Below, piece by piece: positions 11,791 through 63,775 of a stretch of DNA of 64,000 nucleotides (position 1 is the stretch's first letter; the number at the start of each line of letters is the position of its first letter). The DNA lies in the IMG/VR virus record IMGVR_UViG_3300033816_000828, positions 16,156 through 80,155 of that record, one strand, 5' to 3'. Below the pieces are notes generated by a model, which did no database searches, was not told the DNA's origin, and worked only from the letters and a program-made list of their open reading frames with translations. This DNA is from a virus. The position numbers and the translations under genes were made by a program.

Positions 11791-12208
11791 TTGCTGCCTC
11801 CACTAAGGTTATGACTTCATCATCCTTGAGATCTGCTCCTGTATCTAACATAGCATTTAATAATTGCATACCATATTTAGCATATTGTTCTTTTGATAAT
11901 TCTCGTCTTAATATTCTTTTTATTCTCATTTTTGTAAACATACCACGACGAGAACTATATTCTTTGATTTCTGATCCATAAAGATTGTATTTATCTTGAG
12001 CAGTATACTCGCCAGATAGTTTATTTTTATTGCACTCTTGTAGTACTCTGATAACTGTTAGAATAATACTAATCATCATAAGTATAGCAATAACACTACC
12101 AAATTTTTCGTCTTCGGGTACTCCAGCTTTATTTAAAACTTTGGCAGAAATAGCTTTTAACTTTTCATTATTCATTTTCGTATTACTCTGCATCCATTTG
12201 GAGTACAA
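11783..12208 (-). CDS. Single-TM hypothetical protein (start possibly 12175)
   Basis: SVIAILMMISIILTVIRVL hydrophobic helix. Confidence 0.7.
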   Translation of the reverse strand: MYSKWMQSNTKMNNEKLKAISAKVLNKAGVPEDEKFGSVIAILMMISIILTVIRVLQECNKNKLSGEYTAQDKYNLYGSEIKEYSSRRGMFTKMRIKRILRRELSKEQYAKYGMQLLNAMLDTGADLKDDEVITLVEAANV

Positions 12209-12498
12209 ATAGTACCACTTTTAATTACACCGGCTTGAGGAAGACTCTGCATATGTGTTCCTGTTTCTGGTTCACAATATCCACAATCAACCATCTTGAT
12301 ACCGTCGCCACTAAGATACTTACCAGTACCCTTGCATACTGGACAATTTTTTCTCTTATATTTTGTATCTGGCATTTCGATATGTGTTGATTTGATTATT
12401 CCACCAGCCAGAACAACAGATGCTGTAGTAGATCCTTTGTATTGAGATGATCCAAATAATACGGTTGCTATTAGTACCAACCCTAATAATTTATTCAT
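12172..12498 (-). CDS. Secreted or membrane protein with DnaJ-like Zn-finger motifs
   Basis: Signal-like N-terminus, CPVCKGTG...CGYC, C-terminal CTPNGC. Confidence 0.65.
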   Translation of the reverse strand: MNKLLGLVLIATVLFGSSQYKGSTTASVVLAGGIIKSTHIEMPDTKYKRKNCPVCKGTGKYLSGDGIKMVDCGYCEPETGTHMQSLPQAGVIKSGTICTPNGCRVIRK

Positions 12499-20447: not shown

Positions 20448-21674
20448 TCAACCATACGCAATTTCTACACCATCAACATGAGCAACCCAGCGAATAGTTT
20501 CACCAGTTTGCCCGATCACATTAATTTGAAGAGCATCATTTGTATCATCGGCTGTTATTGATACATCATAAGAAGCGTCATCTTCAACATCTGTGCCTAA
20601 TATACTAACTGTTCCTATAAGGCTTGTGGTTCCGCTTATGTTTTTAATTGCTACTTTACGAATATAATGAATGGCTTTGCTACCACCATTAATAATACCA
20701 GCAATAGAAACTGTAGCAAATAAAGCCTTGCCAGACGGAATAGTTAATCTTATACTGTTACTATCAAGAAAGAGTTCTGTTGGTGTGTCATCTGACGTAA
20801 TTTGACGTAGAATAAAATTTACTCTTTGTGCATCACCGTCAGATGCAAAACTTCCGGCGGAATATGCTTGCATTCCGTACCTGTCGGCTTTAGCCTGTAA
20901 CCCGCCGCTTATGGTGCTGCCGATGGCGCTAGCATTGTTGTTATTGCCGCCACTCACAGTGCTGTAGTACGCGCTGGCGGTATTACTGCCGCCGCCACCA
21001 ATCGCAGAAAGGGGGCCACTGGCCGTGTTGCTGTTACCGCCGCAAATGCTGGCATAAAAATTTGTGGCGCTGTTGTAATTTCCGCCACCAATAGTGGCAT
21101 ACAAAGCACTGGCGGTGTTATGCGAACCGCCGCCAACAAAACCTTCGTTTTCCGCCGTGTTGTAACGACCGCCGCATACAACGGAATAAGGAGCGATAGC
21201 GGTGTTGTTTTGACCGCCGCCGATAAACGCGTAGTCGCTCCCGATAGGAATTGAATTGTAAGATCCGGCGCTAATTCCGGCGTATGTGCTTTCAACAGTG
21301 TTCTGATAGCCGCCGCCGATAAACGAGTAGTCGCTGAACTGAGCGTTGTTATTTTTACCACCTCCAACCACAGCATACGAACCGCTAACCGTATTGTTGT
21401 CTCCACCACCAACAACGCTACTGCCAGCGTTAACACCTACACTATTGCCGCCATTAGTTGGTAAAATATTAAAATTTTCGTCAAGTATATATGGAAATGC
21501 TGGAAATAGTCCGCTAACACTACTATTAAAATCTGTTATATTTGAACTGGTATGAGTATGTCCACTAACGCTAACAAATACATTATTTAATGTTAAGCCT
21601 GTTGTAAAATTACCACTAGAGGCAATAAGATTGCCGCTTGTTGTAACATCATTATTACTATAATTAATTGCCAT
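20448..21674 (-). CDS. Tail-fibre/adhesin-like protein with GGGxxNxA beta-roll repeats
   Basis: About 14-residue GGG..N.A repeats; C-terminal domain (TIRWVA) paralogous to the end of 21710..26248. Confidence 0.75.
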   Translation of the reverse strand: MAINYSNNDVTTSGNLIASSGNFTTGLTLNNVFVSVSGHTHTSSNITDFNSSVSGLFPAFPYILDENFNILPTNGGNSVGVNAGSSVVGGGDNNTVSGSYAVVGGGKNNNAQFSDYSFIGGGYQNTVESTYAGISAGSYNSIPIGSDYAFIGGGQNNTAIAPYSVVCGGRYNTAENEGFVGGGSHNTASALYATIGGGNYNSATNFYASICGGNSNTASGPLSAIGGGGSNTASAYYSTVSGGNNNNASAIGSTISGGLQAKADRYGMQAYSAGSFASDGDAQRVNFILRQITSDDTPTELFLDSNSIRLTIPSGKALFATVSIAGIINGGSKAIHYIRKVAIKNISGTTSLIGTVSILGTDVEDDASYDVSITADDTNDALQINVIGQTGETIRWVAHVDGVEIAYG

Positions 21675-44715: not shown

Positions 44716-45246
44716 TTATTTTTTGATATAAACATATACTGGAATATTATTCCATATATCTTTAATCAATTCTGAGATAAATTGCCAATCTCCACCAGCT
44801 AATCCGCTACCAAATTTTGGGCAATGTATTTCGGTTTCTGTAGTAATATCACGAGATTTCAGATCTATAGTTTTACTTTTAATATCGTTCATACAATTAG
44901 CTAGTGCAAAATAGTTAAGTGGTCTCGAATTAGATTTACTAATGAGTCCATTTTGTGCTATCATATTTGCAATAAAAATTTTATTACCGGTATTTTTATT
45001 AATATACGCTTCAACAAATTGAGTATACCCTAATTTGGCTTTGTTGCCAAGCATATGAAAATTTTCTTTAACTGATGGAAACATATTGCTGATATAGCCA
45101 GCAAATCCAGCACCAAAACCATTTACATTATTGCATACATGCGGTATAATAATATTATGTGTAGAGGTTCTATCTTTAGCAAGATCAATTATGTCTTTAT
45201 TTTTAATTAAAACGTAACATTTGTCTTTGTGTTGTGTACTATACAT
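44716..45246 (-). CDS. Macro-domain (ADP-ribose processing) protein
   Basis: HVCNNVNGFGAGFA, ANMIAQ, PKFGSGLAGGDW. Confidence 0.85.
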   Translation of the reverse strand: MYSTQHKDKCYVLIKNKDIIDLAKDRTSTHNIIIPHVCNNVNGFGAGFAGYISNMFPSVKENFHMLGNKAKLGYTQFVEAYINKNTGNKIFIANMIAQNGLISKSNSRPLNYFALANCMNDIKSKTIDLKSRDITTETEIHCPKFGSGLAGGDWQFISELIKDIWNNIPVYVYIKK

Positions 45247-45487
45247 TTTCTTTAGTCCATTTATTTAGTGGGCATTCCTGATCAGCCCATGCTAGTTTAT
45301 TCATGAAAATTTTTTTATTATTAACATTACATCCACACTGTAAACATTCTTGATGTTTAGTATCATAACTATCACAGGATAAGCATATATTGTATCTGTA
45401 ATCAATTTGTTGCTGATTACACTTTGGAAGTCCAGATGCAATATGAAAAATCAATGATTTAATAAATACTATTATTTTAGTTAACAT
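45239..45487 (-). CDS. Small Cys-rich protein (start more likely 45487)
   Basis: RYNICLSC...CLQCGC...ECPLNKW. Confidence 0.7.
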   Translation of the reverse strand: MLTKIIVFIKSLIFHIASGLPKCNQQQIDYRYNICLSCDSYDTKHQECLQCGCNVNNKKIFMNKLAWADQECPLNKWTKENV

Positions 45488-45488
45488 A

Positions 45489-45686
45489 TTATTTATCTGT
45501 CTCCCACTCTTTCCATGAGTCATCATCTTCAATAATTTGTTTTTTGCGTTGTTTAAATTGTTTGTTTGCTGCTTTATTATTAGATGTTTCATCATCTAAA
45601 AAATGTTTTTGAGTTTTTTTGTGAGAAAATTTTTGTTTTCTATTGAATTTTTCTTGAAATTGATCGTCATTCATGTACATATTCAT
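45489..45686 (-). CDS. Small charged hypothetical protein (start uncertain)
   Basis: Downstream of the TTGACA/TATAAT promoter; GAGG before ATG 45686. Confidence 0.55.
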   Translation of the reverse strand: MNMYMNDDQFQEKFNRKQKFSHKKTQKHFLDDETSNNKAANKQFKQRKKQIIEDDDSWKEWETDK

Positions 45687-45699
45687 AGCCTCATTAGTC

Positions 45700-45728
45700 A
45701 TTATATATGGCCGTATTTGGTGTGTCAA
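45700..45728 (-). promoter_or_regulatory. Consensus sigma70 promoter
   Basis: TTGACA-N17-TATAAT. Confidence 0.8.
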
Positions 45729-50884: not shown

Positions 50885-50973
50885 AAAAATGGGAAGGAAT
50901 CGAACCTTCTCACATAGCGTTTGTCGAATTTCCCAACCAGAGGCTATGATCTTAGTCACCAGACTCCATTTTC
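50885..50973 (-). ncRNA. tRNA-like structured RNA lacking a canonical anticodon arm
   Basis: AAAATGG/CCATTTT closing stem, AGTC-TGGT-GACT hairpin, CATAGC/GCTATG arm, GAAGG-TTCGATT-CCTTC T-arm. Confidence 0.6.
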
Positions 50974-50982
50974 TTTTAACGA

Positions 50983-51861
50983 TCAATACTGATCGTCGTA
51001 ATCATCCTCATCTTCATCGTCAGCATCAGCGTAGTAATCTTCATCCATATCTTCTTCATCGTCATTCCATGCCCAACTATACTCATGATCATAATCATCT
51101 TCGTCATCATTATAGTCATCTTCAGCAAAGTTAGATGAATAAAGAGGCTTGAGAAGTTCGCCTTGATACTCTCCAACAACTTCATATTGGCAAGTACGAA
51201 GTTTCTCACAATTACAATCACTAGGAACGCTAACAACGTCACAAGGATTAATCTTCACAATAACAATACGGTCACCAGCATCGACGCTGCCGTAACCAGC
51301 AACATAGTTCAATGCTCCAGCATGAAGTCCCTGAGAACAACCGCGACCACGATTATCATCAACTTTTGATCGGGTCATCTTGCAAATATCGCCAACCTTG
51401 TTACGAAACTTTCCAGCATACTTGTCCATATAATCACCACGAACAGCCTTATATGCTAGAAAGCATCCATCCTCAGTAATTGGCAGATGCTCATGCTCAA
51501 GGAAATCATAAAGTTCCTGCTGACTCTGCATACTAGGATTATCCATAAGATTATTCAGAAAGTTAACGAGGGGCTGAAATGGCAGACCCTTGCTCATAAA
51601 CTCCAGAATTCTCTTACTAATACTACCATGAACTTCGTCACCATCATAGAACACCTTACCTTCCTTAATATCCACAAGACCATCGCTAAATACTGCGACT
51701 GCCTTTTGAATATCAACAATCTCAAGTAATTCATCAGCGGTCGCTGTGGGCAAACGCTCAAGAATCATCTTGTAATTAATATGATCCGGCAAAACCTGAT
51801 AACTCTGGTTATTAAGAACCAGTGTCAAATTACCATCAACAAACATAAACGGAACAGCCAT
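50983..51861 (-). CDS. rIIB: rIIB-like protein
   Basis: LPITEDGCFLAYKAV, CSQGLHAG, VKINPCDVVSVP, LRTCQYEVV, acidic tail. Confidence 0.9.
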   Translation of the reverse strand: MAVPFMFVDGNLTLVLNNQSYQVLPDHINYKMILERLPTATADELLEIVDIQKAVAVFSDGLVDIKEGKVFYDGDEVHGSISKRILEFMSKGLPFQPLVNFLNNLMDNPSMQSQQELYDFLEHEHLPITEDGCFLAYKAVRGDYMDKYAGKFRNKVGDICKMTRSKVDDNRGRGCSQGLHAGALNYVAGYGSVDAGDRIVIVKINPCDVVSVPSDCNCEKLRTCQYEVVGEYQGELLKPLYSSNFAEDDYNDDEDDYDHEYSWAWNDDEEDMDEDYYADADDEDEDDYDDQY

Positions 51862-51887: not shown

Positions 51888-54569
51888 TTACTTAACTAAA
51901 CTACCAATTTGCTTTCTAAATGCTTCCACATCATTTAGACTTGTTAACCATGTTTTAGTATTACCGCTGTAGTAATGCCTGTCATCAAGTTGTTTAATCG
52001 GTTCATTTGAACCAGATAGTTCTCTTAGTTCGCCAGACACGGCACGACTACCAACAATATACTTCAAAACGGGATTGTTGTCAAGTTCGGCTTTAATATC
52101 TTTTCTAACATCTTCCATTTTGGCAAGATTATATTTCTTTGAAACATCTGGCTTAATAATAGCAAGACACTCCTTCATCATATCTTCGTTATGAATATAC
52201 ATTCTACTCTGAATATATGATACCAAAGAATTATATGCAATATTACTATTACGAACCTTCTGACTATCAAGACCATTGATCCCAATATCACTTAATAGTT
52301 TTGTTATGTGACCAAAATAATCGGCCGCCTTGAATCGCTTGATATCAAAAGAAGGACGATGAACAGTATCAACAAAGAACTCAATAATTAGACAATAATT
52401 GATAGCATCAACTAGTTTCTTATTACTGATATGTTTCTCATAGTCCAAACCAAAAATATTAAGCATATGAAAAGTAAATTGCTTTTCCAGAGTACCATAT
52501 CCATAGTAAGTGTCGCTATTCTTAGCAGAATAATTATTCTGAGTTCTGCTAAATTCAACAATACCATTGTATTCTGACAACTTGTTCAGACTATCTTTGG
52601 CAACTCTTTTGAGTTGCTTCTTGAAGAAAGTATTAAAGTCAATCAGCGTATATCCCTGCTTCTTGAGTTTATCGACAAAAGCACTCTTGATAGCATAAAT
52701 CTTATTAGATCCAAACAAATCCTTGACTAATGATGTTGCAGTAACATCGTTTATCATTAGGTTCAAATCAGAAATTGATGGATATTCATTAGAAGCACTA
52801 GCATAGCGAATGATTGGAACATAAATAATCTCATCACTATCTTCAAAAGCCTCTAATTCATCTTCTGTCAAAACCCTGAGACAAGGAGCATCGTTATAAG
52901 GATTGCTAATTTTGCCGCTATCCTTAGATTCTCCATAGATAAAAAATACATCTTGGTCACTAACAGCACCATTAGAAGATCGACTACTTTGCTTACGAGG
53001 ATTATTACTCTTAATCAAGTCCTTGTAGTCAGAAACCTTCTTGATTTTGTCAGCACCAACATCAGAGATAAGATCGTCAAAACCTTCATCTGCCTTAGTA
53101 TGATCCTTGGTATCAATCATTAGATACGCAAAACAATTATTGTCGTTGCAATATCTAGTAACGATCTTCTTTGCTGTTTCTTCTGTTTTAATATCGCAAA
53201 CAAAGAATGACAGTTCGCCCGTCTTTTTCTGACTATTCCAATAGTATTCCCCCTTACCAGTAAGAGTATTGTGATGAATACTGTTTGTCTGATAAACCAT
53301 GCGACGAGAACGATAGCCAGCAGTACGATAATTAAAAACGTACATACTCTTTCCGGCAGGAATTTTATATTCTAGATCCTGTCCAGAATTAATATTGTGC
53401 TTCTTACCCTTACTGTCAGTCCATTCAGCACCAACTCCCCAACCACCAGCAAGATCGTTAAGGGTATAATAAAGCGTGATTGCTTCTACCTTGGTTTTGG
53501 CAGCAGCGATTTTCTTGCTAAATTGTTCCTTCATCTCAAGATAAATCTCTTGAGTCTTTTCACGCAAGGTTCTAATTACATCTTTGGTATACTGCAAACC
53601 TTCTCTGGAAACGTCCATTTCAAGTTCGCCAATACCAAAGTCAAGTTCAAGATAAAGATTCTGGTTAATAATCTCATTAACAAAACTTTTCCAACTGTCA
53701 ATATCGGCCTTTTGAAAAGCACGATTCCAACGCTGAATAGCATCATTAGTGGTTTGCTTATCCTCACCAACAATCTGACTAGCCTTAACGGGGTACGCAA
53801 TATTGCCCATTAGTGCAACAATGCCACTATCAATATGGTGATGAACATTAGGATAATAATTAGTATCATTATTCAGGCGGCAAACTCTCCAACCATCACC
53901 GCTCAAGATGATGTTTTTATTGCTATATTTATGATCTTTTAGATTAGTTAGAACACCACCCTCAATAATAGGCTTCATCTTAAAGTAATGGAAAATACGC
54001 ATAGACTTGCTACTAAATTCAGCAAAGTCATACTGCTTTACAGCAAAACTAATCTCAAGACCATTAGGTTCGTCGGTTTCGCTGACACTAAAAAGATTCA
54101 GAGTAGGAACGCCACTATCATCAATAGCAGCAACATAAGTATACTTTTGTCCATTGTAATAAGAACTAGTAGTAAAACTCTTGGTATACGCAAAAGGACT
54201 CTTAGAACCTAGACCAAGACAACCAACAAAATCGTTACTAGTATTCTTATTACTAGCACCATAGGTTGTATAAAGATTCTCCATATCGGCCTGACTAAGA
54301 CCAGTGCCATAATCACGCACCACAAAATTAGGATTACCAGCACTAGGCAATACTACCTTAAAAGGATTCTTATTACCAGCAGCAATATGACTGTCATAAG
54401 CGTTAGTGGACAACTCACGAACAACTGCCATCACCTTGTCAGAATAAAGAGAGTCTGACAAAATCTTAAACATTTTACTGGTTTGGGCGATAGTGAATCC
54501 TGCTTCACTCTTAACACCAGCACTGTGAGTCTCAACCGTCCTGTCTGCCAACTTCATTTTCTTCTCCAA
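51888..54569 (-). CDS. rIIA: rIIA-like protein (GHKL ATPase N-terminus); start possibly 54557
   Basis: LYSDKVMAVVRELSTNAYD, DYGTG, GLGSKSPFAY, SREGLQY; adjacent to rIIB. Confidence 0.9.
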   Translation of the reverse strand: MEKKMKLADRTVETHSAGVKSEAGFTIAQTSKMFKILSDSLYSDKVMAVVRELSTNAYDSHIAAGNKNPFKVVLPSAGNPNFVVRDYGTGLSQADMENLYTTYGASNKNTSNDFVGCLGLGSKSPFAYTKSFTTSSYYNGQKYTYVAAIDDSGVPTLNLFSVSETDEPNGLEISFAVKQYDFAEFSSKSMRIFHYFKMKPIIEGGVLTNLKDHKYSNKNIILSGDGWRVCRLNNDTNYYPNVHHHIDSGIVALMGNIAYPVKASQIVGEDKQTTNDAIQRWNRAFQKADIDSWKSFVNEIINQNLYLELDFGIGELEMDVSREGLQYTKDVIRTLREKTQEIYLEMKEQFSKKIAAAKTKVEAITLYYTLNDLAGGWGVGAEWTDSKGKKHNINSGQDLEYKIPAGKSMYVFNYRTAGYRSRRMVYQTNSIHHNTLTGKGEYYWNSQKKTGELSFFVCDIKTEETAKKIVTRYCNDNNCFAYLMIDTKDHTKADEGFDDLISDVGADKIKKVSDYKDLIKSNNPRKQSSRSSNGAVSDQDVFFIYGESKDSGKISNPYNDAPCLRVLTEDELEAFEDSDEIIYVPIIRYASASNEYPSISDLNLMINDVTATSLVKDLFGSNKIYAIKSAFVDKLKKQGYTLIDFNTFFKKQLKRVAKDSLNKLSEYNGIVEFSRTQNNYSAKNSDTYYGYGTLEKQFTFHMLNIFGLDYEKHISNKKLVDAINYCLIIEFFVDTVHRPSFDIKRFKAADYFGHITKLLSDIGINGLDSQKVRNSNIAYNSLVSYIQSRMYIHNEDMMKECLAIIKPDVSKKYNLAKMEDVRKDIKAELDNNPVLKYIVGSRAVSGELRELSGSNEPIKQLDDRHYYSGNTKTWLTSLNDVEAFRKQIGSLVK

Positions 54570-56855: not shown

Positions 56856-56890
56856 GATTGTATCCTTATAGAATTAAGTTAATCAATAAA

Positions 56891-56963
56891 TAGGAGTGGT
56901 GGGAGTCGAACCCACACTTGAGGCATTTTAAGTGCCTTGACTCTGCCTTTGGTCTACACTCCC
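56891..56963 (-). tRNA. tRNA-Leu(UAA) with short variable loop, CCA not encoded
   Basis: GGGAGTG/CACTCCT+A, AGGCA-CTTAAAA-TGCCT, GTGGG-TTCGACT-CCCAC. Confidence 0.9.
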
Positions 56964-56970
56964 ATAAAAA

Positions 56971-57048
56971 CAACCGACTACAAAAACCATTGACTTGAGG
57001 TTGATTATCTTGTTGTGCCTCTGTCATTTAAATTCTTGTAGCCGATTG
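56971..57048 (-). ncRNA. Long imperfect hairpin RNA immediately upstream of tRNA-Leu
   Basis: 16-bp stem with 3 G-U pairs, plus inner TGAC/GTCA and GAGG/CCTC helices. Confidence 0.5.
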
Positions 57049-57070
57049 CCTATTGGTTTTAAAAACCCTC

Positions 57071-57382
57071 TCAGCCGTTAGCGTGAGCCTTTAGGCGACG
57101 AACAAAGTCGGCCATAGCCTCAACATTATCCACTGTCTTAGATGGCTTCGCACGTTCCATAGTTGGTAGTTCTTCACCCTTCTTAGCAAGAGCCGCTTTA
57201 GTACGAGCAAAACGAGCCATTGTGGTAGCAACCTTCTGACCCGTCTTGCTGGCAATTTCAGCATAAGTCTTAGACGAAAAAACAGCCTCAAGAAACTGCT
57301 CATCAGAGCAACGAACACGCTTCTGCTTCTCAACAATATTTACATCAGCCATAATCAACCTCCAATTCAATCCAAAATCCAC
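57071..57382 (-). CDS. Small basic HTH-like protein (start likely 57352)
   Basis: GGAGG SD before ATG 57352; TYAEIASKTG. Confidence 0.7.
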   Translation of the reverse strand: MDFGLNWRLIMADVNIVEKQKRVRCSDEQFLEAVFSSKTYAEIASKTGQKVATTMARFARTKAALAKKGEELPTMERAKPSKTVDNVEAMADFVRRLKAHANG

Positions 57383-57429
57383 AAAACAGTACCGATCACG
57401 CGATCAGTTCAACCCTGCTTTGTATTACC

Positions 57430-57457
57430 ATTGTATCCTGTAGTATCGTCTTGTCAA
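57430..57457 (-). promoter_or_regulatory. Sigma70-type early promoter
   Basis: TTGACA-N16-TACAAT. Confidence 0.7.
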
Positions 57458-57480
57458 GACCGCAACTTGAATTTTTAAGT

Positions 57481-57684
57481 TCAAACAGTCTGAATTTCAT
57501 GTTCTTCTAAATCATCTATAATCTTTTTCAGATTTTTATTTTCATTTTCTAATATTGATATGATTTCTCTAGCCTTTTCCAGAGCCTTATGAAGATGATA
57601 CACCTTATTGCTTAATTCATCAGCAACATAATTTTTCATTATCATATCTATCTCCTTTTGAGTTAGCGATATAATAATATACAC
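57481..57684 (-). CDS. Small coiled-coil protein (start likely about 57642)
   Basis: AAGGAG SD at about 57652-57657. Confidence 0.65.
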   Translation of the reverse strand: MYIIISLTQKEIDMIMKNYVADELSNKVYHLHKALEKAREIISILENENKNLKKIIDDLEEHEIQTV

Positions 57685-57965
57685 TATATATTGTTAAGAA
57701 ATACTTTTAATTCATCTATTTGATTTTTGTGCAATATGATTTGATCGGTATATGGTTTTCCGTTCTTTAGTATTTGATAAATGTATCGTATTTTTTGCCA
57801 AAGAGACATTTTAGAAGAAATCAAAGAACTAAATACTGATAGTTCTATCATCTTAAATGTTGCATCATAGTCTATAACTAAAACTTCACTATGACAGTCA
57901 CATCGTATGAAAAGAGTTCGATAGTTATTTATTTTTTGGTCTTTTTTTACCAAAGATTCGTTCAT
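57684..57965 (-). CDS. Hypothetical protein
   Basis: CDCHSE motif. Confidence 0.65.
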   Translation of the reverse strand: MNESLVKKDQKINNYRTLFIRCDCHSEVLVIDYDATFKMIELSVFSSLISSKMSLWQKIRYIYQILKNGKPYTDQIILHKNQIDELKVFLNNI

Positions 57966-58035
57966 AGTTTTTTTCCCATGTTTTTTGATCTACGCTTTTT
58001 GGTCTTTGTTTAGAACCCTTACCATTTTGGCTCAT
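57925..58035 (-). CDS. Small basic protein (36 aa), not in the ORF track
   Basis: MSQNGKGSKQRPKSVDQKTWEKNYERIFGKKRPKNK, GAGG SD. Confidence 0.6.
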   Translation of the reverse strand: MSQNGKGSKQRPKSVDQKTWEKNYERIFGKKRPKNK

Positions 58036-58037
58036 AA

Positions 58038-58742
58038 TTAGTCCTCAAGAACAAAACTCCAATAACGACTATCTTCTTTCTTTTGCAAATTATCCCAATA
58101 CAAGCAGCGGGCAATATATGATGGAATTTTTTGCTTGCCGCAATTTACCACCCAGTGACGTTCAGCCTTTTTATAAATGGTTGAGCCACTCTTACTCTTA
58201 TTATATTTCAAATCTTCCATATCGTAAAGGCGAAGCATATGAACATCCAAACACAATGCTCTGGCCTCATTAGGATGGATCATTTCTAAGGCAAAACTAA
58301 CCTTAGCCAAACCAATGCCACTAATTTTATTTACAATAGAATCACGCTTCTTAACATGACCCTTCTTGGAGGTAAAATAAAAGTCTTTAGGATTAGCCCA
58401 AAACTTACTAGCAAAGTCCCAAATATATTTTGTACGATTATTGTGTAGGCCAACACCACTCTTATGCAATTTATCTCTCAGAATATTTTCATTATCAATC
58501 CACTCATTAAAATTCTTAATAGCATTATATCCCTTAACATTACCTTGCCAAGTGGTATGAACGCTGGTATATGCAAAGAGATAACGACGAAAAATATCTT
58601 CAACATTCTGAGGACGAACACTCTCCCAATATTCTCTATATGCTACAACCTTATCTTTGGGGAATGTAGAGAAGAAAATATCGGCCTTACTCTTGCTCAT
58701 TTCAACAGTATTATTTTCGGCAACAGTGTTCAAAACAATCAT
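58038..58742 (-). CDS. HhH-GPD DNA glycosylase (Ogg-like)
   Basis: ISGIGLAKVSFAL helix-hairpin-helix, LDVHMLR catalytic Asp. Confidence 0.75.
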   Translation of the reverse strand: MIVLNTVAENNTVEMSKSKADIFFSTFPKDKVVAYREYWESVRPQNVEDIFRRYLFAYTSVHTTWQGNVKGYNAIKNFNEWIDNENILRDKLHKSGVGLHNNRTKYIWDFASKFWANPKDFYFTSKKGHVKKRDSIVNKISGIGLAKVSFALEMIHPNEARALCLDVHMLRLYDMEDLKYNKSKSGSTIYKKAERHWVVNCGKQKIPSYIARCLYWDNLQKKEDSRYWSFVLED

Positions 58743-58772
58743 AAAAACTCCAATGTTAGCGATGATGCTACG

Positions 58773-58801
58773 ATTCTACACTACGAGTATCGTCTAGTCA
58801 A
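58773..58801 (-). promoter_or_regulatory. Sigma70-type early promoter
   Basis: TTGACT-N17-TAGAAT. Confidence 0.65.
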
Positions 58802-58812
58802 TACGGTAGACT

Positions 58813-59517
58813 TTAGTCAAATCTATATGGTTGAGACTTGTCCCATATCTGTTGATATCCAACCATATTTTCTGTTTTCCATTGAGTAGAATTATTAATT
58901 TCATTAATATAGTGATTAGATAATTTATATAAATGTATTTTACTTCTATCGCTATTATATCTATTTGATATTTTTCTAATTTTATACATATCAGAAATTA
59001 TATCTAAAATAGCCTCTGTATATTCAATTAAATCTTCATATCGAATAAAAATATAATTATCTACTAAATATGGCATATACAGGTATAAAAATTGTAATTT
59101 ATTAGATCTCATATCAAAAATATCTTGATATTTCTCTTTTGTATACCAATGAGAATCACAAAATTTGTGATAATCAGATAAACCTCTGGCAGATTGCCAA
59201 GGTTTAATATCTAAAATATTGGATGTATCTAAATGATATGGAGTTTTTTTCATACCTCCTATCCAATTGTAAATATTTCTAACAATGCCTATAAATAAAG
59301 TATTGTGTGCTGTATTTAAATTACTCCATTGAGAACAACCAAAAAAATGCTTATGACCATAATCCCAAGTGATTGGAATATGAAATACATCTTTGATTAA
59401 TTTTTCTACCCAATTAGTACCAGAATGTCTTTCCCCATAAATAGTAAAATTTTGGATGGAATAATTATCTATTGTAGAATAGAATTGGTTATATTTAAAT
59501 AGTTCTATTGCAACCAT
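58813..59517 (-). CDS. Sulfotransferase-like protein
   Basis: YGERHSGTNW, VRNIYNW, IRYEDL. Confidence 0.7.
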   Translation of the reverse strand: MVAIELFKYNQFYSTIDNYSIQNFTIYGERHSGTNWVEKLIKDVFHIPITWDYGHKHFFGCSQWSNLNTAHNTLFIGIVRNIYNWIGGMKKTPYHLDTSNILDIKPWQSARGLSDYHKFCDSHWYTKEKYQDIFDMRSNKLQFLYLYMPYLVDNYIFIRYEDLIEYTEAILDIISDMYKIRKISNRYNSDRSKIHLYKLSNHYINEINNSTQWKTENMVGYQQIWDKSQPYRFD

Positions 59518-60808
59518 GAAGTATTTTAAATGTTGGAAATCTTAGACTAATACCACCATCTTGGTTTTTGGTTTCCTCAAAATACTGGACTGTGATAATC
59601 TTTCCAAGAATCTTTTTAGGATGCTGATAAAATTCTTGTCTTTGGTCAATAGCGAAACCGCTACCAACCCTAACAATATGTTCCTTATGCTTAATCATCA
59701 CACAAGATAGCATAGTTTCTTCATGCTCTCGACCATTCAAGACATATCTAAATGGCCCCATTTCAACATCAACAACCTCATACTCGTCATCAAAAAACTT
59801 CTTAACTTTCAGAAGGTCTTTGCTACGCTTGCCCTTATATGGCTCGTCTGCTCGCAGCATTATTCCTTCCCAACCATAATCAGCGGCTTCTTTAACCCAC
59901 TCTTGAAAATGTTCGTCATTATGAATCAGTTCTTGTTCCAGCAGAGTAAGGCATGGACATTCGTTCTTGCTCATAGTCTCTGTCAGATTCGCCAAGCGAA
60001 TAGAATACGGACGATTCTTCTCGCCCTTCTTGCTATAAAATTCATCGTGCGTAATCATATCAAAAATCTTAAAAGATGGATTAGGAATAGTATGATCCTT
60101 CTTCTTTAGTTGTTTCATCACTCCCTGAAAGTCCTCATTACCATCATCATCAACAAGACAAAGTTCTCCATCAAATACTACATTAGTAATGTTAAGAGCC
60201 TTAATACCATCCCTAACGATGCCAAGAGTATCAAACTCTTTTCCCGTGCGGGAATAGAAGGTAGTATCACCATTACTATCAACAATCCCAATACATCTAG
60301 CACCATCAATTTTTCTGCTAACATACCAGCCATCCTTCCAATCTACCAGTTTAGGCTCGTACTTATCTGCCAGAGCAACACTAAACTCTGGAATATGGTC
60401 AGGAATAGCCTTGTTGATAATCTTGTCACCAGCACGGGTTTTCAAATCCTTGTCGATAATACAATGAATCAGTTCCTCGTATTCAGAGTAGTGTTCGATA
60501 AAACTATTCACAGCAGAGATAGCATCATGTCCAGTAATCTTTCGACTCTTTAGAGCATCCAACAAATCAAAGAAATTTTTATATTCGTTCTTTCTGGCTA
60601 CAAGATGATTCTTCTTCTTCAAATTATCGCTGGTCACATTATATTGCCACAACGGATGATAAGTATAAAGTAAAATATTTTTAGTGAAAGATGCTGCGGC
60701 ACTGTTATGTCCGCAATAATCCAAAATAATTCCTTCCTTATCTTTAGTGCTGCTCGTAGCACGAAGATCACGAACCATTCCCATAACATAATTAAAATCG
60801 TGAATCAT
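59495..60808 (-). CDS. ATP-dependent DNA ligase
   Basis: SRKIDG, SRTGK, FDGEL, EGIMLR, LLKVK, VGSGF, SLRFP. Confidence 0.95.
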   Translation of the reverse strand: MIHDFNYVMGMVRDLRATSSTKDKEGIILDYCGHNSAAASFTKNILLYTYHPLWQYNVTSDNLKKKNHLVARKNEYKNFFDLLDALKSRKITGHDAISAVNSFIEHYSEYEELIHCIIDKDLKTRAGDKIINKAIPDHIPEFSVALADKYEPKLVDWKDGWYVSRKIDGARCIGIVDSNGDTTFYSRTGKEFDTLGIVRDGIKALNITNVVFDGELCLVDDDGNEDFQGVMKQLKKKDHTIPNPSFKIFDMITHDEFYSKKGEKNRPYSIRLANLTETMSKNECPCLTLLEQELIHNDEHFQEWVKEAADYGWEGIMLRADEPYKGKRSKDLLKVKKFFDDEYEVVDVEMGPFRYVLNGREHEETMLSCVMIKHKEHIVRVGSGFAIDQRQEFYQHPKKILGKIITVQYFEETKNQDGGISLRFPTFKILHGCNRTI

Positions 60809-60833
60809 CCAAAGTTTCTCCTGTATTTAGCGT

Positions 60834-60862
60834 AGTATACCATACGCTATCTGTATTGTCAA
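60834..60862 (-). promoter_or_regulatory. Sigma70-type early promoter for the ligase
   Basis: TTGACA-N17-TATACT with extended TG. Confidence 0.75.
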
Positions 60863-61236
60863 GTATCGTCAATACGGGTCTTGCTTCTTAAATTATTTAT
60901 TTTAGCAGCAAGTAAATAGTTCATGGCTTTCGTGATACTCTCAAGAGTATCTCCTAATTGTCCTAGTCCCCAATTGCAGTTTTCACAAATCCATCCTCTG
61001 AAACTATTATCATCATGATCATGATCTAAACACCATTTATTCTTAAAAGGAATTCTTCCACAGCATTGACAAACATCTGGTTTTGGTGGTGCTTCTTTAT
61101 GAAGTTGATTTCTCAATCTAGAATGTTTTTTGAGACATTGTTTGCATCGTGTATCTAATCCATCAACACGATTTTTATGTTTAGAAAAAGATTTTTTATT
61201 TTTTCTTTTTCCACAATAAATGCAAACTTTTCTCAT
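60859..61236 (-). CDS. Endonuclease VII-family homing endonuclease
   Basis: CQCCG...LDHDHDDNSFRGWICENCNWGLG. Confidence 0.88.
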   Translation of the reverse strand: MRKVCIYCGKRKNKKSFSKHKNRVDGLDTRCKQCLKKHSRLRNQLHKEAPPKPDVCQCCGRIPFKNKWCLDHDHDDNSFRGWICENCNWGLGQLGDTLESITKAMNYLLAAKINNLRSKTRIDDT

Positions 61237-61352
61237 TTATGTTTCTTGAGTTGTTTCTTTAATTTTTTTAGATATCTATCTTCTGCTAATTCTTCAGGAT
61301 TTTTCTTTTCCTGCTTACGCAGTTTTTTATATATCTTTTTCCAGAAACTCAT
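61233..61352 (-). CDS. Small Lys-rich protein (39 aa), not in the ORF track
   Basis: MSFWKKIYKKLRKQEKK...; ATGA overlap with the next gene. Confidence 0.55.
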   Translation of the reverse strand: MSFWKKIYKKLRKQEKKNPEELAEDRYLKKLKKQLKKHK

Positions 61353-61353
61353 A

Positions 61354-61896
61354 TTATACCTTTATTGATTGACTAACGTTTTTACAAAAATCTATAACTT
61401 GTTCATCAGAAAATCTGTTTCTGGCATAGTTAAACATAAGAGCAACAAAACGAATATTCCCTTTAATATAACCTTTACTATTATCTATTCTATCAACAGA
61501 TGCAGAATATGGTGCTGAAATATTATCGTCACTATATTTTTTTAATACCAGTTTTTGTTTTGTGAATGGACAAATACCGCCTTGTTGTTTCCAAAGCATT
61601 TCCAAGTATTCTATATCTACATCATAGAACTGGTTTCTCTTTTTGGAACTTTTTTTGATTACTTTCATATACCATCTAAAACCAGCATATTTATCTCTTT
61701 GTCTTGTATATTGTGTATTTAAAAAATTATTTTTAAATTTTGTTAGATGTTGTAAATTATTTTTATTTTTCCCAGCACATTTAAGACTACAATAAAATTC
61801 AGTTTTACCCCTTTTTTTCTGTCTTTTTATTTCTGCTGCTGGTTTTTCTGTTTCCTTAGCACATACAGCACATATTATCTTAGTTTTAGTAATCAT
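61354..61896 (-). CDS. HNH-like homing endonuclease (true start 61896; the ORF-track extension overlaps the tmRNA)
   Basis: AAGGAG SD; CAVC/YCSLKC; GICPFT...SVDRIDNSKGYIKGNIRFV..N. Confidence 0.8.
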   Translation of the reverse strand: MITKTKIICAVCAKETEKPAAEIKRQKKRGKTEFYCSLKCAGKNKNNLQHLTKFKNNFLNTQYTRQRDKYAGFRWYMKVIKKSSKKRNQFYDVDIEYLEMLWKQQGGICPFTKQKLVLKKYSDDNISAPYSASVDRIDNSKGYIKGNIRFVALMFNYARNRFSDEQVIDFCKNVSQSIKV

Positions 61897-61956
61897 TTGT
61901 ATCTCCTTAGTTGGTAATTTATAATACACCAAAAATGGAGATGAGCAAGTATTTAA

Positions 61957-62311
61957 TGGAGGCGGGCAGAGTCGAACTGCCGTGCTATCATATTTCAAAT
62001 TACATTTTCTACAAGTTTATTTTATTCATAGATTAAATAGGAGTACAGAATAAACAAGACTAATCCTATCTTACCAACTGCTCTTAACCTACAACCCGTT
62101 GGATATTGTAAGTGCAGAGGGATTTAACGACAGACTTTTGATACCTACCCTCAATCGGTATCGCAGTCTGTTACTGCCGTTTTTTATTAGGCAGCAAGGG
62201 CTAACTGATTTGTGCCAGTTAAAGCATTTGGTAGATTTTTAAAGTGGCCCTTCCACCAACCACTACTTGCCAATATAATAATCTTTATGTAGTCGAAACC
62301 TTTACGCCCCC
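61957..62311 (-). ncRNA. ssrA: tmRNA; tag peptide (A)GTNQLALAA
   Basis: 5' GGGGGCG...TTCGAC, 3' GGCAG-TTCGACT-CTGCC-CGCCTCCA with G3-U70; TAACT then GGC ACA AAT CAG TTA GCC CTT GCT GCC TAA TAA. Confidence 0.93.
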
Positions 62312-62536
62312 TTATTTCTTAAGTACACTTTTTGTATTATCTTCCCAATTTTCTAGTCTCTCAATCTCATTTTTAATCTGCTGAAATTCCATTTGACTAG
62401 TTCCACAACGCCAGAAAACAGAATCAAATTCTAGTTTCTGTAATCTACTATAGAAATGTATATTAAATAGAAAAGACAGTAGTAGTAACCCAATTAAGAA
62501 CGTATAACTTGCTAAATGATTTGAACGATTAGTCAT
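62312..62536 (-). CDS. Small single-TM protein (start more likely 62536)
   Basis: AAGGA SD; TM followed by a coiled tail; stop abuts the tmRNA 5' end. Confidence 0.6.
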   Translation of the reverse strand: MTNRSNHLASYTFLIGLLLLSFLFNIHFYSRLQKLEFDSVFWRCGTSQMEFQQIKNEIERLENWEDNTKSVLKK

Positions 62537-62603
62537 AAATTTTGTTCCTTTTAGACGAAATGGTGTATGATACTTTATCAAGTTTTAATCAAGGAGTTCG
62601 ACT

Positions 62604-63113
62604 ATGAATCATTGTGCTAATTGCTTTAAAAAAACTAGTAATGCTAAATTTTGTTGTTTGTCTTGTAGTGCTACTTATACTAATAAAACTCATCCAAAAC
62701 GAAAACCTCAATCAAATAATAATGCTAAATGTCCTAATTGTAAAAAGAATTTTCATACTGATTATGCTACACAAATTTGTTGTTCCAAACAATGCTCAAC
62801 CGAATATCGCAGACTCCAGAGTGATAAAATTATTGAACAAGAAGGTTTTGGCGATGGGCATTATCATAATCTTAGAATTAGAAAATATCTTATTAGAAAA
62901 CATGGAAATAATTGCATGATTTGCGGGCAATCTGGAGATAATTGGAATGGAAAACCCATTACTCTTATAGTAGATCATATTGATGGCAAATCCAATAATA
63001 ATAAACTTAATAATCTCCGTATAGTTTGTCCAAATTGCGATTGTCAACTTCCAACATACAAAGCAAAAAATAAAGGTAATAGTTCTAGGAAATATTTTAT
63101 AGTTCAAAAATAA
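62604..63113 (+). CDS. HNH homing endonuclease, the only convincing plus-strand gene
   Basis: AAGGAG SD; Cys-rich repeats; VDHIDG..NNN..NNLRIVCPNCD. Confidence 0.9.
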   Translation: MNHCANCFKKTSNAKFCCLSCSATYTNKTHPKRKPQSNNNAKCPNCKKNFHTDYATQICCSKQCSTEYRRLQSDKIIEQEGFGDGHYHNLRIRKYLIRKHGNNCMICGQSGDNWNGKPITLIVDHIDGKSNNNKLNNLRIVCPNCDCQLPTYKAKNKGNSSRKYFIVQK

Positions 63114-63114
63114 A

Positions 63115-63190
63115 TAGGGGATAAAGGAGTTGAACCTTTCTCTTGAACTGCTTATAAGACAGGTGACCACTACCGGCGGTCGCATCCCCC
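63115..63190 (-). tRNA. tRNA-Ile(UAU), somewhat atypical, CCA not encoded
   Basis: GGGGGAT/ATCCCCT+A, GACC/GGTC D-stem, loop CTTATAA, AAAGG-TTCAACT-CCTTT. Confidence 0.8.
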
Positions 63191-63198
63191 GTGTTTGT

Positions 63199-63227
63199 AT
63201 TGTATACTATCGACCGATCCCTGTCAA
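63199..63227 (-). promoter_or_regulatory. Sigma70-type promoter for tRNA-Ile
   Basis: TTGACA-N17-TACAAT ending 8 nt before the tRNA. Confidence 0.75.
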
Positions 63228-63775
63228 CTCTTGAGATATTTTTCGTAGTAGTTGCGATAAATACTCATAATAATACCACTAGTTGTTCCAACATTTAAAG
63301 ACCGTACACTTCCATAAGTAGGAATAGTTAGAACACAACTACAAGCCATAAGAATTGTTTCTGATAAACCAGCATTTTCTTCTCCAAAAATAAAAATTGG
63401 TTCATCAATATTAGAAAAATCAAAACTAAAAGGATCGAATGTGATTTCTTTGTATTCTGGAATATTATTCTCAATAGCAATTAATGGTCGGCCAGTAGAT
63501 TTAATTACTTTAATAAACTCTTCTTCGGTTTTATAATGAAACATTGGAGTGTAGTGATGGGTTCCTACGCTACCTCTTTTATCCCATTTCTTTTTACCAA
63601 CATAATGTACGCTACTAAATCCAAAAAAATTAGCATTACGAACCATTGTGCTGAGATTAAAATCTCCACCAATATTAATCATAGCAACACTTGCTGGAAT
63701 ACTATTTTTATGACAATAGTTTCCGATTTCTGGCACACTCAACTCTTTAAGACTGTCTATCACGTTCATTTTCAA
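63224..63775 (-). CDS. SPOUT (SpoU/TrmH/TrmL-type) RNA 2'-O-methyltransferase
   Basis: NLSTMVR, FGEENAGLS, IPTYGSVRSLNV. Confidence 0.9.
   Translation of the reverse strand: MKMNVIDSLKELSVPEIGNYCHKNSIPASVAMINIGGDFNLSTMVRNANFFGFSSVHYVGKKKWDKRGSVGTHHYTPMFHYKTEEEFIKVIKSTGRPLIAIENNIPEYKEITFDPFSFDFSNIDEPIFIFGEENAGLSETILMACSCVLTIPTYGSVRSLNVGTTSGIIMSIYRNYYEKYLKS

Follow-up and report, generated by a model that had tools for sequence, protein, structure and literature searches.

Phage T4 encodes a transfer RNA (tRNA) for leucine with the anticodon UAA as well as an AUA-reading tRNA-Ile, and its codon usage was reportedly described as time-dependent by Cowe and Sharp in 1991. Here we analyse a stretch of 64,000 nucleotides (nt), hereafter the window, which forms the last 64 kb of an 80,155-bp virus record in IMG/VR (IMGVR_UViG_3300033816_000828; G+C content 32%) and carries a cassette made up of a tRNA-Ile(UAU), a tRNA-Leu(UAA), a transfer-messenger RNA (tmRNA) and a SPOUT-class methylase gene. 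A handful of genes from which the codons AUA and UUA are nearly excluded share a genomic block with the RNA genes of this cassette. In Shigella phage Sf14, published analysis suggests that the phage tRNAs mainly serve late genes (PMC12482277). The present locus resembles T4 and Sf14 in that its tRNAs would read codons common in later genes and rare in the host, and in that early and late genes differ in codon use. It differs from them in that the split is near-absolute and concerns two codons and a handful of genes, and in that the cassette unites a type I tRNA-Leu, a genomically encoded UAU tRNA-Ile with an odd D-arm, a methylase and a tmRNA. A cellular parallel is the bldA tRNA-Leu(UAA) of Streptomyces, which controls TTA-containing genes (PMC6614811, PMC12772374). 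There too the expression of rare-codon genes hinges on the supply of one tRNA, and the codon UUA is the same if the host of the phage is actinobacterial. However, bldA is a cellular developmental switch, whereas the present case is viral and involves two codons, many genes and a regulatory role that we infer.

The single components of the cassette also have described counterparts. Mycoplasma mobile reads AUA with a tRNA-Ile whose UAU anticodon is encoded in the genome, an arrangement that requires an isoleucyl-tRNA synthetase (IleRS) accepting U34 and brings a risk of misreading AUG (PMC3575796). Type I tRNA-Leu, with a short variable loop, has been described as rare in bacteria, and the type I tRNA-Leu(CAA) of Streptomyces coelicolor is charged by its own leucyl-tRNA synthetase (ScoLeuRS) and not by the LeuRS of E. 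coli (PMC6614811). Streptomyces phages of the BE cluster carry 39-45 tRNAs and one tmRNA (PMC12509530, PMC11237712), and the methylase finds its best-matching structures among the TrmH enzymes (PDB 1v2x, 1zjr and 7edc; PMC11640301). The locus is a clean case of a known phage translation-support strategy and not a new type of system. All four elements named in an initial annotation of the DNA (tRNA-Ile(UAU), short-arm tRNA-Leu(UAA), SPOUT methylase and tmRNA) proved real by ARAGORN, Rfam, Pfam and comparative evidence.

Results

Two codons are nearly excluded from five genes

We compared codon use among 99 open reading frames (ORFs) called on the contig by a simple greedy procedure. Across most of the phage genes, AUA and UUA rank with the most frequent codons, and both retain their standard assignments to Ile and Leu. 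They are nearly excluded from five genes, which we call avoiders, all on the minus strand. These are rIIA (51888-54569; phrog_612, 1.6e-111), rIIB (50983-51861; phrog_609, 6.7e-71), a small helix-turn-helix (HTH)-like early gene with a weak Sigma70_r4_2 match (57071..57382; zero ATA or TTA codons), an Ogg-like DNA glycosylase (58038..58742; Pfam PF22175; ATA 0/14, TTA 1/15) and an ATP-dependent DNA ligase supported by Pfam and PHROG matches (59495..60808; ATA 2/35, TTA 1/33). Together the avoiders use ATA for 4 of 126 isoleucines (3%) and TTA for 8 of 142 leucines (6%), compared with 839 of 2116 (40%) and 922 of 1795 (51%) in the remaining genes (Fisher 7e-21 for ATA and 2e-30 for TTA). The scarcity that the initial annotation had noticed in rIIA/rIIB, the ligase and the 57071 gene is thereby strongly confirmed, and the glycosylase belongs to the same group. 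No other of the 59 synonymous codons is as strongly depleted in the avoiders as ATA and TTA (log2 -3.5 and -3.1); AAA and other A-ending codons come next, at log2 values of about -1.5 to -0.8. The SPOUT gene shows intermediate use of both codons.

The per-gene split is clear and is conserved in orthologs, which were drawn, at up to 27 loci per gene, from 66 related loci retrieved from IMG/VR with the SPOUT protein and one distant relative of it. Ligase orthologs use ATA at 5% and TTA at 3%, while neighbouring genes stand at 30-50%; glycosylase orthologs use them at 7% and 6%, and orthologs of the 57071 gene contain 3 ATA among 73 isoleucine codons and no TTA among 93 leucine codons. Retention of the avoidance across the clade points to selection rather than recent transfer, and recent horizontal transfer was rejected as its sole cause. 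In codon alignments of the orthologs, 70% of TTA codons aligned to Leu codons, as did 68% of TTG and 68% of CTA codons, and 58% of ATA codons aligned to Ile. Since these rates are about those of synonymous codons, the genetic code is standard, and recoding was likewise rejected, whether by the short-arm tRNA-Leu(UAA) or by the unusual tRNA-Ile(UAU).

Avoiders and RNA genes share one block of the genome

The location of the avoiders was also examined in a complete relative of 138,480 bp with terminal repeats (G004). Its 11 genes lowest in ATA plus TTA all fall within 128-138.5 kb plus 0-34 kb, a block of ~44 kb, and all ten of its tRNA and tmRNA genes lie inside this block. In the source contig, we scanned up to 120 nt upstream of each gene for sigma-70-like promoters with at least 10 of 12 consensus matches; the resulting promoters are consensus matches only. 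They precede 4 of the 5 avoiders and 6 of the 92 other genes of this genome (Fisher 3e-4). On the minus strand, candidate promoters were found ahead of rIIA/rIIB (54627-54600), the 57071 gene (57457-57430), the glycosylase (58801-58773; a 10/12 match) and the ligase (60862-60834). A further candidate, TTGACA-17-TACAAT with 11 of 12 consensus matches (63199..63227, minus strand), overlaps the stop codon of the SPOUT gene and ends 9 nt ahead of tRNA-Ile(UAU). The window also holds a perfect 12/12 sigma-70 consensus, TTGACA-17-TATAAT, at 45700-45728 on the minus strand, 105 nt upstream of a small gene (45239-45595) to which no function was assigned and which is not an ATA/TTA avoider.

A tRNA-Ile(UAU) with an unusual D-arm

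ARAGORN reported three RNA genes on the minus strand of the window, namely tRNA-Leu(UAA) at 56890-56964, tmRNA at 61957-62311 and tRNA-Ile(UAU) at 63115-63190. The 76-nt tRNA-Ile(UAU) has a G1.U72 pair, A73, the anticodon loop CUUAUAA and a 7-nt variable loop, and its CCA end is not encoded. The initial annotation had placed a stand-alone SPOUT methylase directly upstream of it, and indeed the SPOUT ORF ends 33 nt before the tRNA. Its D-stem is atypical, with 6 bp closing a 5-nt loop, and this geometry accounts both for its failure to reach the gathering threshold of the Rfam tRNA model (RF00005; 29 bits) and for its top match within the clan, the tRNA-Sec model at 25.6 bits. All other parts of a cloverleaf are in place, as it forms four helices, an anticodon loop of 7 nt in which position 33 is U and position 37 a purine, and a T-loop.

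Comparison with relatives supports the assignment. The gene occupies a conserved slot, with a UAU tRNA no more than 1.7 kb downstream of the SPOUT gene in 26 of 42 non-redundant related loci, and this synteny extends to a locus (L086) whose SPOUT protein is only 37% identical. At least five sequence types can be told apart among the copies; they have in common G1.U72, A73 and the loop CUUAU(A/U)A, and the canonical types among them score 51-65 bits against the Rfam tRNA model. Within the type found in the window, 8 relatives show compensatory changes at 10 of 23 pairs while the loop CUUAUAA is invariant. One complete relative of 186.8 kb (L026) carries a group I intron that splits the tRNA in its anticodon loop (10600-10860; Rfam 58.7 bits). 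From the covariation, the intron-bearing copy and the synteny we conclude that this is a predicted functional tRNA with an unusual D-arm. A further group I intron lies in another relative (L080) at 12061-12253, immediately past a tRNA-Leu(CAA). The phage tRNA shares with that of M. mobile a genomic UAU anticodon for AUA; it differs in being phage-encoded, in depending on the host IleRS for charging and, for the copy in the window, in its tRNA-Sec-like 6-bp D-stem.

A type I tRNA-Leu(UAA) of cellular kind

The tRNA-Leu(UAA) (56891..56963, minus strand) is 73 nt long, passes the threshold of the Rfam tRNA model at 56.2 bits and has a 5-nt variable loop, CAAGU, together with G1.U72, U8, A14, A15/U48 and A73, again with no encoded CCA. 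A leucine anticodon combined with a variable loop of 4-5 nt marks it as type I, in agreement with the short arm claimed at the outset. In two relatives (L019 and L020) a type II, long-arm tRNA-Leu(UAA) fills the identical slot between flanks that are 81-88% identical, and this replacement of one type by the other in a single slot indicates that the two are functionally equivalent. The alignment of TTA to Leu, the type II swap, the cellular homologs described below and the charging of a type I tRNA-Leu by ScoLeuRS (PMC6614811) suggest that leucine is the identity of the phage tRNA.

We searched bacterial genomes for a pattern composed of the D-arm of the phage tRNA-Leu and a YAA anticodon loop. 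It occurs in at least 120 genomes, mostly of Actinomycetota; among the 80 matches listed, about 63 are Actinomycetota by their record titles, and the others include Planctomycetota, Acidobacteriota and one member of the Saprospiraceae. All 80 listed matches are type I tRNA-Leu of 73-78 nt (65 UAA and 15 CAA), G1.U72 is present in 16 of them, and the top cellular type I tRNA-Leu(UAA/CAA) genes among them are 78-82% identical to the phage copies. By this comparison, the phage tRNA-Leu(UAA) belongs to a cellular type I family represented chiefly in Actinomycetota, a hint that the host may have a LeuRS able to accept type I tRNA-Leu. With the S. coelicolor tRNA it has in common the 5-nt variable loop, the U8-A14 pair, an identical D-arm sequence and a YAA anticodon; the published case is a CAA tRNA, unlike the phage copy and 65 of the 80 listed cellular matches, which are UAA.

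A one-piece tmRNA is the most constant neighbour of the methylase

The tmRNA (61957..62311, minus strand) is of the one-piece kind and matches Rfam RF00023 over model positions 1-374 with 112.9 bits. It encodes the tag GTNQLALAA, followed by two stop codons, in a coding part at about 62184-62216, and its acceptor strands GGGGGCG / CGCCTCC form a G3.U70 pair with no encoded CCA. A full-length score above 47 bits, G3.U70 and a tag that ends in ALAA before a stop are the marks by which we recognise the family, and all are present. In the contig, which is 58% complete, SmpB was not found. The tmRNA is the most constant neighbour of the SPOUT gene, lying downstream of it in 31 of the 33 loci with sufficient sequence and, in several of them, beginning 51-270 nt past the SPOUT gene with no tRNA in between. 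The BE-cluster phages resemble this phage in combining a one-piece tmRNA with a large, lytic, tRNA-bearing genome in which no SmpB was found; they differ in that the tag here is short and begins with Gly, and in that the tmRNA is fixed beside a SPOUT gene throughout the clade.

The methylase is closest to TrmH

The SPOUT gene (63224..63775, minus strand) encodes a predicted 2'-O-ribose methyltransferase of the SpoU/TrmH class (Pfam PF00588 SpoU_methylase, 84.9 bits and 7.6e-24, cut-off 29.7 bits). Translation likely begins at the ATG at 63769, for a protein of 181 amino acids (aa); the homologs are also 181 aa long and match residues 3-183. The AlphaFold2 model has a pLDDT (predicted local distance difference test) score of 96.9, and all of its top structural matches are SPOUT enzymes. 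In an alignment of 91 homologs, four residues (N40, R46, G131 and E133) never vary and two more (S159 and N161) hardly do, and the catalytic and S-adenosylmethionine motif residues line up with those of TrmH, namely the Asn and Arg in motif 1 and the Ser and Asn in motif 3. Searching the PDB with the profile of this 91-sequence family returned E. coli TrmH at 97 bits, Aquifex TrmH at 96, the methylase domain of human TARBP1 at 84 and Thermus TrmH at 82, with AviRb (69 bits), TrmL (68) and RlmB (67) at lower ranks. In Foldseek, the top three matches of the model are TrmH structures and TrmL first appears at about rank 34. On these profile scores TrmH is the closest solved family to the phage protein.

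The initial annotation had cast the enzyme as a TrmL-type methylase of position 34 and named action on G18 or rRNA only as the outcome that would undo its proposal. The computational evidence leans toward that outcome, with Gm18 enzymes of the TrmH/Trm3 kind leading the profile search and TrmL far down the Foldseek ranking. The protein reaches no equivalog cut-off in NCBIfam; it scores 31.6 bits against the TrmL equivalog (TIGR00185, Um34/Cm34), which requires 190.6, and 34.7 bits against the TrmH equivalog (NF008295, Gm18), which requires 227. Against the TrmL model, E = 6e-16 was not surpassed by any of the 91 family members. It is unlikely, in our estimation, that the enzyme is something other than a G18 tRNA methylase, either a TrmL-like methylase of the wobble U34 or an rRNA 2'-O-methylase of the RlmB, RlmP or AviRb type that alters host ribosomes. 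Such an assignment could appeal to the RlmB model, whose 43.7 bits are the best NCBIfam score of the single sequence, to Foldseek E-values of rRNA methylases that come within tenfold to hundredfold of those of TrmH, to the action of E. coli TrmL on tRNA-Leu(UAA) (PMC3763551) and to the position of the gene next to a U34 tRNA. It sits poorly with the lead of about 28 bits that TrmH/Trm3 hold over TrmL, RlmB and AviRb in the profile search, and with a match to TrmH that covers an N-terminal extension (query residues 22-35) absent from the minimal TrmL. Moreover, the protein is without the N-terminal L30e-like domain of RlmB-type enzymes and has 181 aa against their ~240-290, and its most constant neighbour, the tmRNA, has no anticodon.

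The best reading of sequence and model is that the protein would be a TrmH-like ribose methylase acting on tRNA and/or on the tRNA-like part of tmRNA. A GG is present in the D-loop region of both phage tRNAs and of the tmRNA. Its likeness to TrmH covers the SPOUT fold, the size (181 versus 194-230 aa), the best profile and structure matches and the three motifs Asn/Arg, Gly-x-Glu and Ser-Leu-Asn. The two differ in that identity is only ~20%; the members of the phage family also share a conserved segment of their own, WDRRGxVGTHxY, are encoded by phages and lie in linkage with a tmRNA. Distant members of the family lie within tRNA arrays (L080 and L086) or in tRNA-rich phages such as NiceHouse (31 tRNAs) and LR756508 (27 tRNAs and a tmRNA), and a search of the literature returned no paper on a phage TrmH-like enzyme.

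The two tRNAs probably belong to a larger set

That the window holds only two tRNAs, as first annotated, is correct for the window and for the 80-kb contig. As a general statement it does not stand, given that CheckV puts the contig at 58% completeness and that complete relatives carry more. The number of tRNA matches is 9-11 in four of five complete relatives and one in the fifth (G003). The additional 7-10 tRNAs lie in an array 20-30 kb upstream of the SPOUT gene that contains Glu(UUC), Arg(UCU), Thr(UGU), Gln(UUG), Lys(UUU), Gly(UCC), Asn, Tyr, Asp and an odd Ser(ACU). As the contig ends 225 nt past the SPOUT gene, and thus past the cassette, a matching array probably lies in the missing part. 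The framing of the locus as a two-tRNA module is an effect of this truncation, and the pair is best regarded as outposts, in the early region, of a larger and mostly U34 set that reads A-ending codons.

Two features of the wider tRNA complement were recorded alongside. ARAGORN finds the long-arm tRNA-Ser(ACU) in complete relatives at L088:11307-11390, L089:994-1082, L090:5293-5382 and L091:2952-3038; its A34 is unusual for bacteria and phages, and AGT is the commonest serine codon in this phage. Across the window and the arrays of L088-L091, L080 and L086, G1.U72 together with A73 recurs in the tRNAs for Ile, Leu, Glu, Arg and some Tyr, all of them substrates of class I synthetases, and the tRNAs for Lys, Thr, Gly and Ser have G1-C72 and those for Asn and Gln U1-A72.

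Gene order and the likely host

Along the direction of transcription, the SPOUT gene and tRNA-Ile(UAU) are followed by an HNH endonuclease gene on the opposite strand, a small ORF, the tmRNA, two further endonuclease genes, the DNA ligase, the Ogg-like glycosylase, the small HTH gene, the tRNA-Leu (106 nt downstream of the HTH gene) and, later, rIIA and rIIB. The HNH homing-type endonuclease ORF (62604..63113, plus strand; phrog_10822, 1.1e-20) sits between tRNA-Ile(UAU) and the tmRNA unit and appears to be a mobile insert; its presence or absence would explain why the tmRNA of relatives starts either ~235-390 or ~916-950 nt after the SPOUT gene. The small ORF (62312..62581, minus strand) encodes 89 aa with a hydrophobic stretch predicted in the product, and its stop codon abuts the 5' end of the tmRNA. 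It found no family match in Pfam/PHROG-type scans and has counterparts between SPOUT gene and tmRNA in four relatives (L043, L048, L050 and L051). An ORF at 58813-59517 (minus strand) overlaps the ligase stop codon by 23 nt and uses TTA for 13 of its 15 leucines; nowhere is the local contrast between the codon classes more marked. Directly after rIIB, a tRNA-like element (50885-50972, minus strand) scores 27.2 bits with the Rfam tRNA model; its acceptor, D and T arms are intact and its anticodon loop carries ~20 surplus nt.

Megablast found no near-identical phage record, and protein searches led to distant phages only. Several observations bear on the host, which is likely an actinobacterium on sequence grounds. 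Relatives of the SPOUT protein occur in Rhodococcus phages, and published tmRNA-bearing phages include actinophages (PMC12509530, PMC11237712). The avoiders prefer AAG, CGT, CTT/TTG and ATT, and when their codon use was compared with that of the 80 listed genomes with type I tRNA-Leu, the best correlations (r 0.5-0.63) were with metagenome-assembled genomes of low-GC freshwater actinobacteria, a correlation that is largely GC-driven. Speaking against such a host, a WhiB gene was not found in the 58%-complete contig.

Discussion

Our preferred reading, to which we give a probability of roughly 55%, is that the locus would be the early-region part of the translation-support set of a ~140-kb freshwater tailed phage, whose early genes would be readable by the host and whose remaining genes would be aided or gated by phage tRNAs. 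The host would read AUA and UUA poorly, and the genes expressed first would be written for translation by the host tRNA pool alone, with the other genes depending on, or being sped up by, phage tRNAs made at the same time. The cassette would provide tRNA-Ile(UAU) from its own strong host-type promoter and tRNA-Leu from behind a promoter-proximal early gene, together with the tmRNA and the TrmH-like methylase. This enzyme would most likely methylate the ribose of a D-loop guanosine (G18-type) in phage, and perhaps host, tRNAs or in the tmRNA, and would be unlikely to act on the wobble U34. The tmRNA, together with host SmpB, would free ribosomes that stall during infection. The earlier claim that the phage supplies its own decoders of AUA and UUA is borne out by the presence of the two tRNAs and by a sharp, conserved split between avoiders and free users of these codons, and such a split is compatible with translation being shifted toward most of the phage genes.

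A number of points weigh against this reading. We infer the poor decoding of AUA and UUA by the host from the codon use of the avoiders alone. Small ATA/TTA-rich ORFs are interleaved among the avoiders, so the codon classes are not clean transcription units or simple operons, and the association of avoiders with promoters was not replicated in G004 (2 of 13 versus 16 of 175). The avoiders also shun other A-ending codons and prefer AAG, so part of their signal is a general difference in codon style. Among candidate hosts, the tmRNA tags of four genomes (three Actinomycetota and one Phycisphaeraceae) differ from that of the phage; those of the actinobacterial candidates (ANYKRTDLALAA, ADNSRSDFALAA and ASTTAADFAIAA) are unlike GTNQLALAA. 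By structure, finally, rRNA methylases rank only slightly below TrmH, and the protein reaches no curated equivalog, so a tRNA or tmRNA target of the SPOUT enzyme is putative.

Several of these same observations would be expected if the codon split had no temporal logic, that is, if the avoiders differed by origin, through mosaic exchange with phages whose hosts have higher GC, or by gene-specific selection for accuracy, and if the tRNAs made up in a generic way for the mismatch in codon usage between an AT-rich phage and a host that is less so. Besides the interleaved ORFs and the missing promoter association in G004, the G+C content at third codon positions (GC3) is 0.31-0.39 in the avoiders versus ~0.18, as part of a globally different codon style with a strong preference for AAG. 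We nevertheless consider this account unlikely. An old transfer should drift to the genome average, yet orthologs with 60-76% protein identity across the clade have retained the bias; the depletion of ATA and TTA goes far beyond what GC3 predicts; and the avoiders of G004 are confined to the block of RNA genes. Furthermore, the putative major capsid gene (20448-21674), taken as such from its position and high GC alone with no family match, uses ATA at 8 of 34 and TTA at 7 of 17; should its expression be high, the avoidance could not be put down to expression level alone.

A stronger version of the preferred reading would make the TrmH-like enzyme a dedicated partner that methylates the D-loop of tRNA(UAU) and/or the tRNA-like domain of the tmRNA, marking or stabilising these RNAs, and that forms with the two tRNAs a codon-gated timer. 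The phage RNAs would then work in the host or survive its nucleases, and genes rich in ATA and TTA would be translated only after the cassette is expressed; we hold this extension to be distinctly doubtful. Least probable is a scheme of nuclease evasion, in which the phage tRNAs replace a host tRNA-Ile and tRNA-Leu destroyed during infection by an anticodon nuclease of the host (or by the phage itself), the methylase protects phage tRNAs and the tmRNA by blocking cleavage at a 2'-OH, and early genes avoid ATA and TTA because their decoders are then missing. In its favour, the atypical body of tRNA(UAU) (6-bp D-stem, G1.U72) could aid escape from recognition, the RNA genes are in tight linkage with a gene for a ribose methylase, and avoidance of exactly two codons also fits the targeted loss of two host tRNAs. 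Against it, the anticodon loops CUUAUAA and CUUAAAA are canonical, the tRNA-Leu is closely like ordinary cellular type I tRNA-Leu, no tRNA repair gene (RNA ligase or kinase-phosphatase) was seen among the ORFs scanned in 55-64 kb, the methylase looks to be of the G18 rather than the anticodon-loop type, and the other tRNAs of complete relatives read many A-ending codons, as fits general codon supply.

With the translation-support reading, no current concept is altered. What makes the locus noteworthy is the near-absolute exclusion of two codons, the clade-wide linkage of SPOUT gene and tmRNA, the tRNA-Ile(UAU) with its 6-bp D-stem and the type I tRNA-Leu(UAA). The type I tRNA-Leu(UAA) is apparently common in Actinomycetota and in what are likely their phages, unlike the rarity stated in PMC6614811. 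The locus also draws attention to a tRNA-Ile(UAU) with a tRNA-Sec-like D-arm and to a widespread phage family of TrmH-like methylases fixed beside the tmRNA gene. For the biology of these phages, the locus offers an unusually clean natural test case for phage tRNAs that would separate early from later translation.

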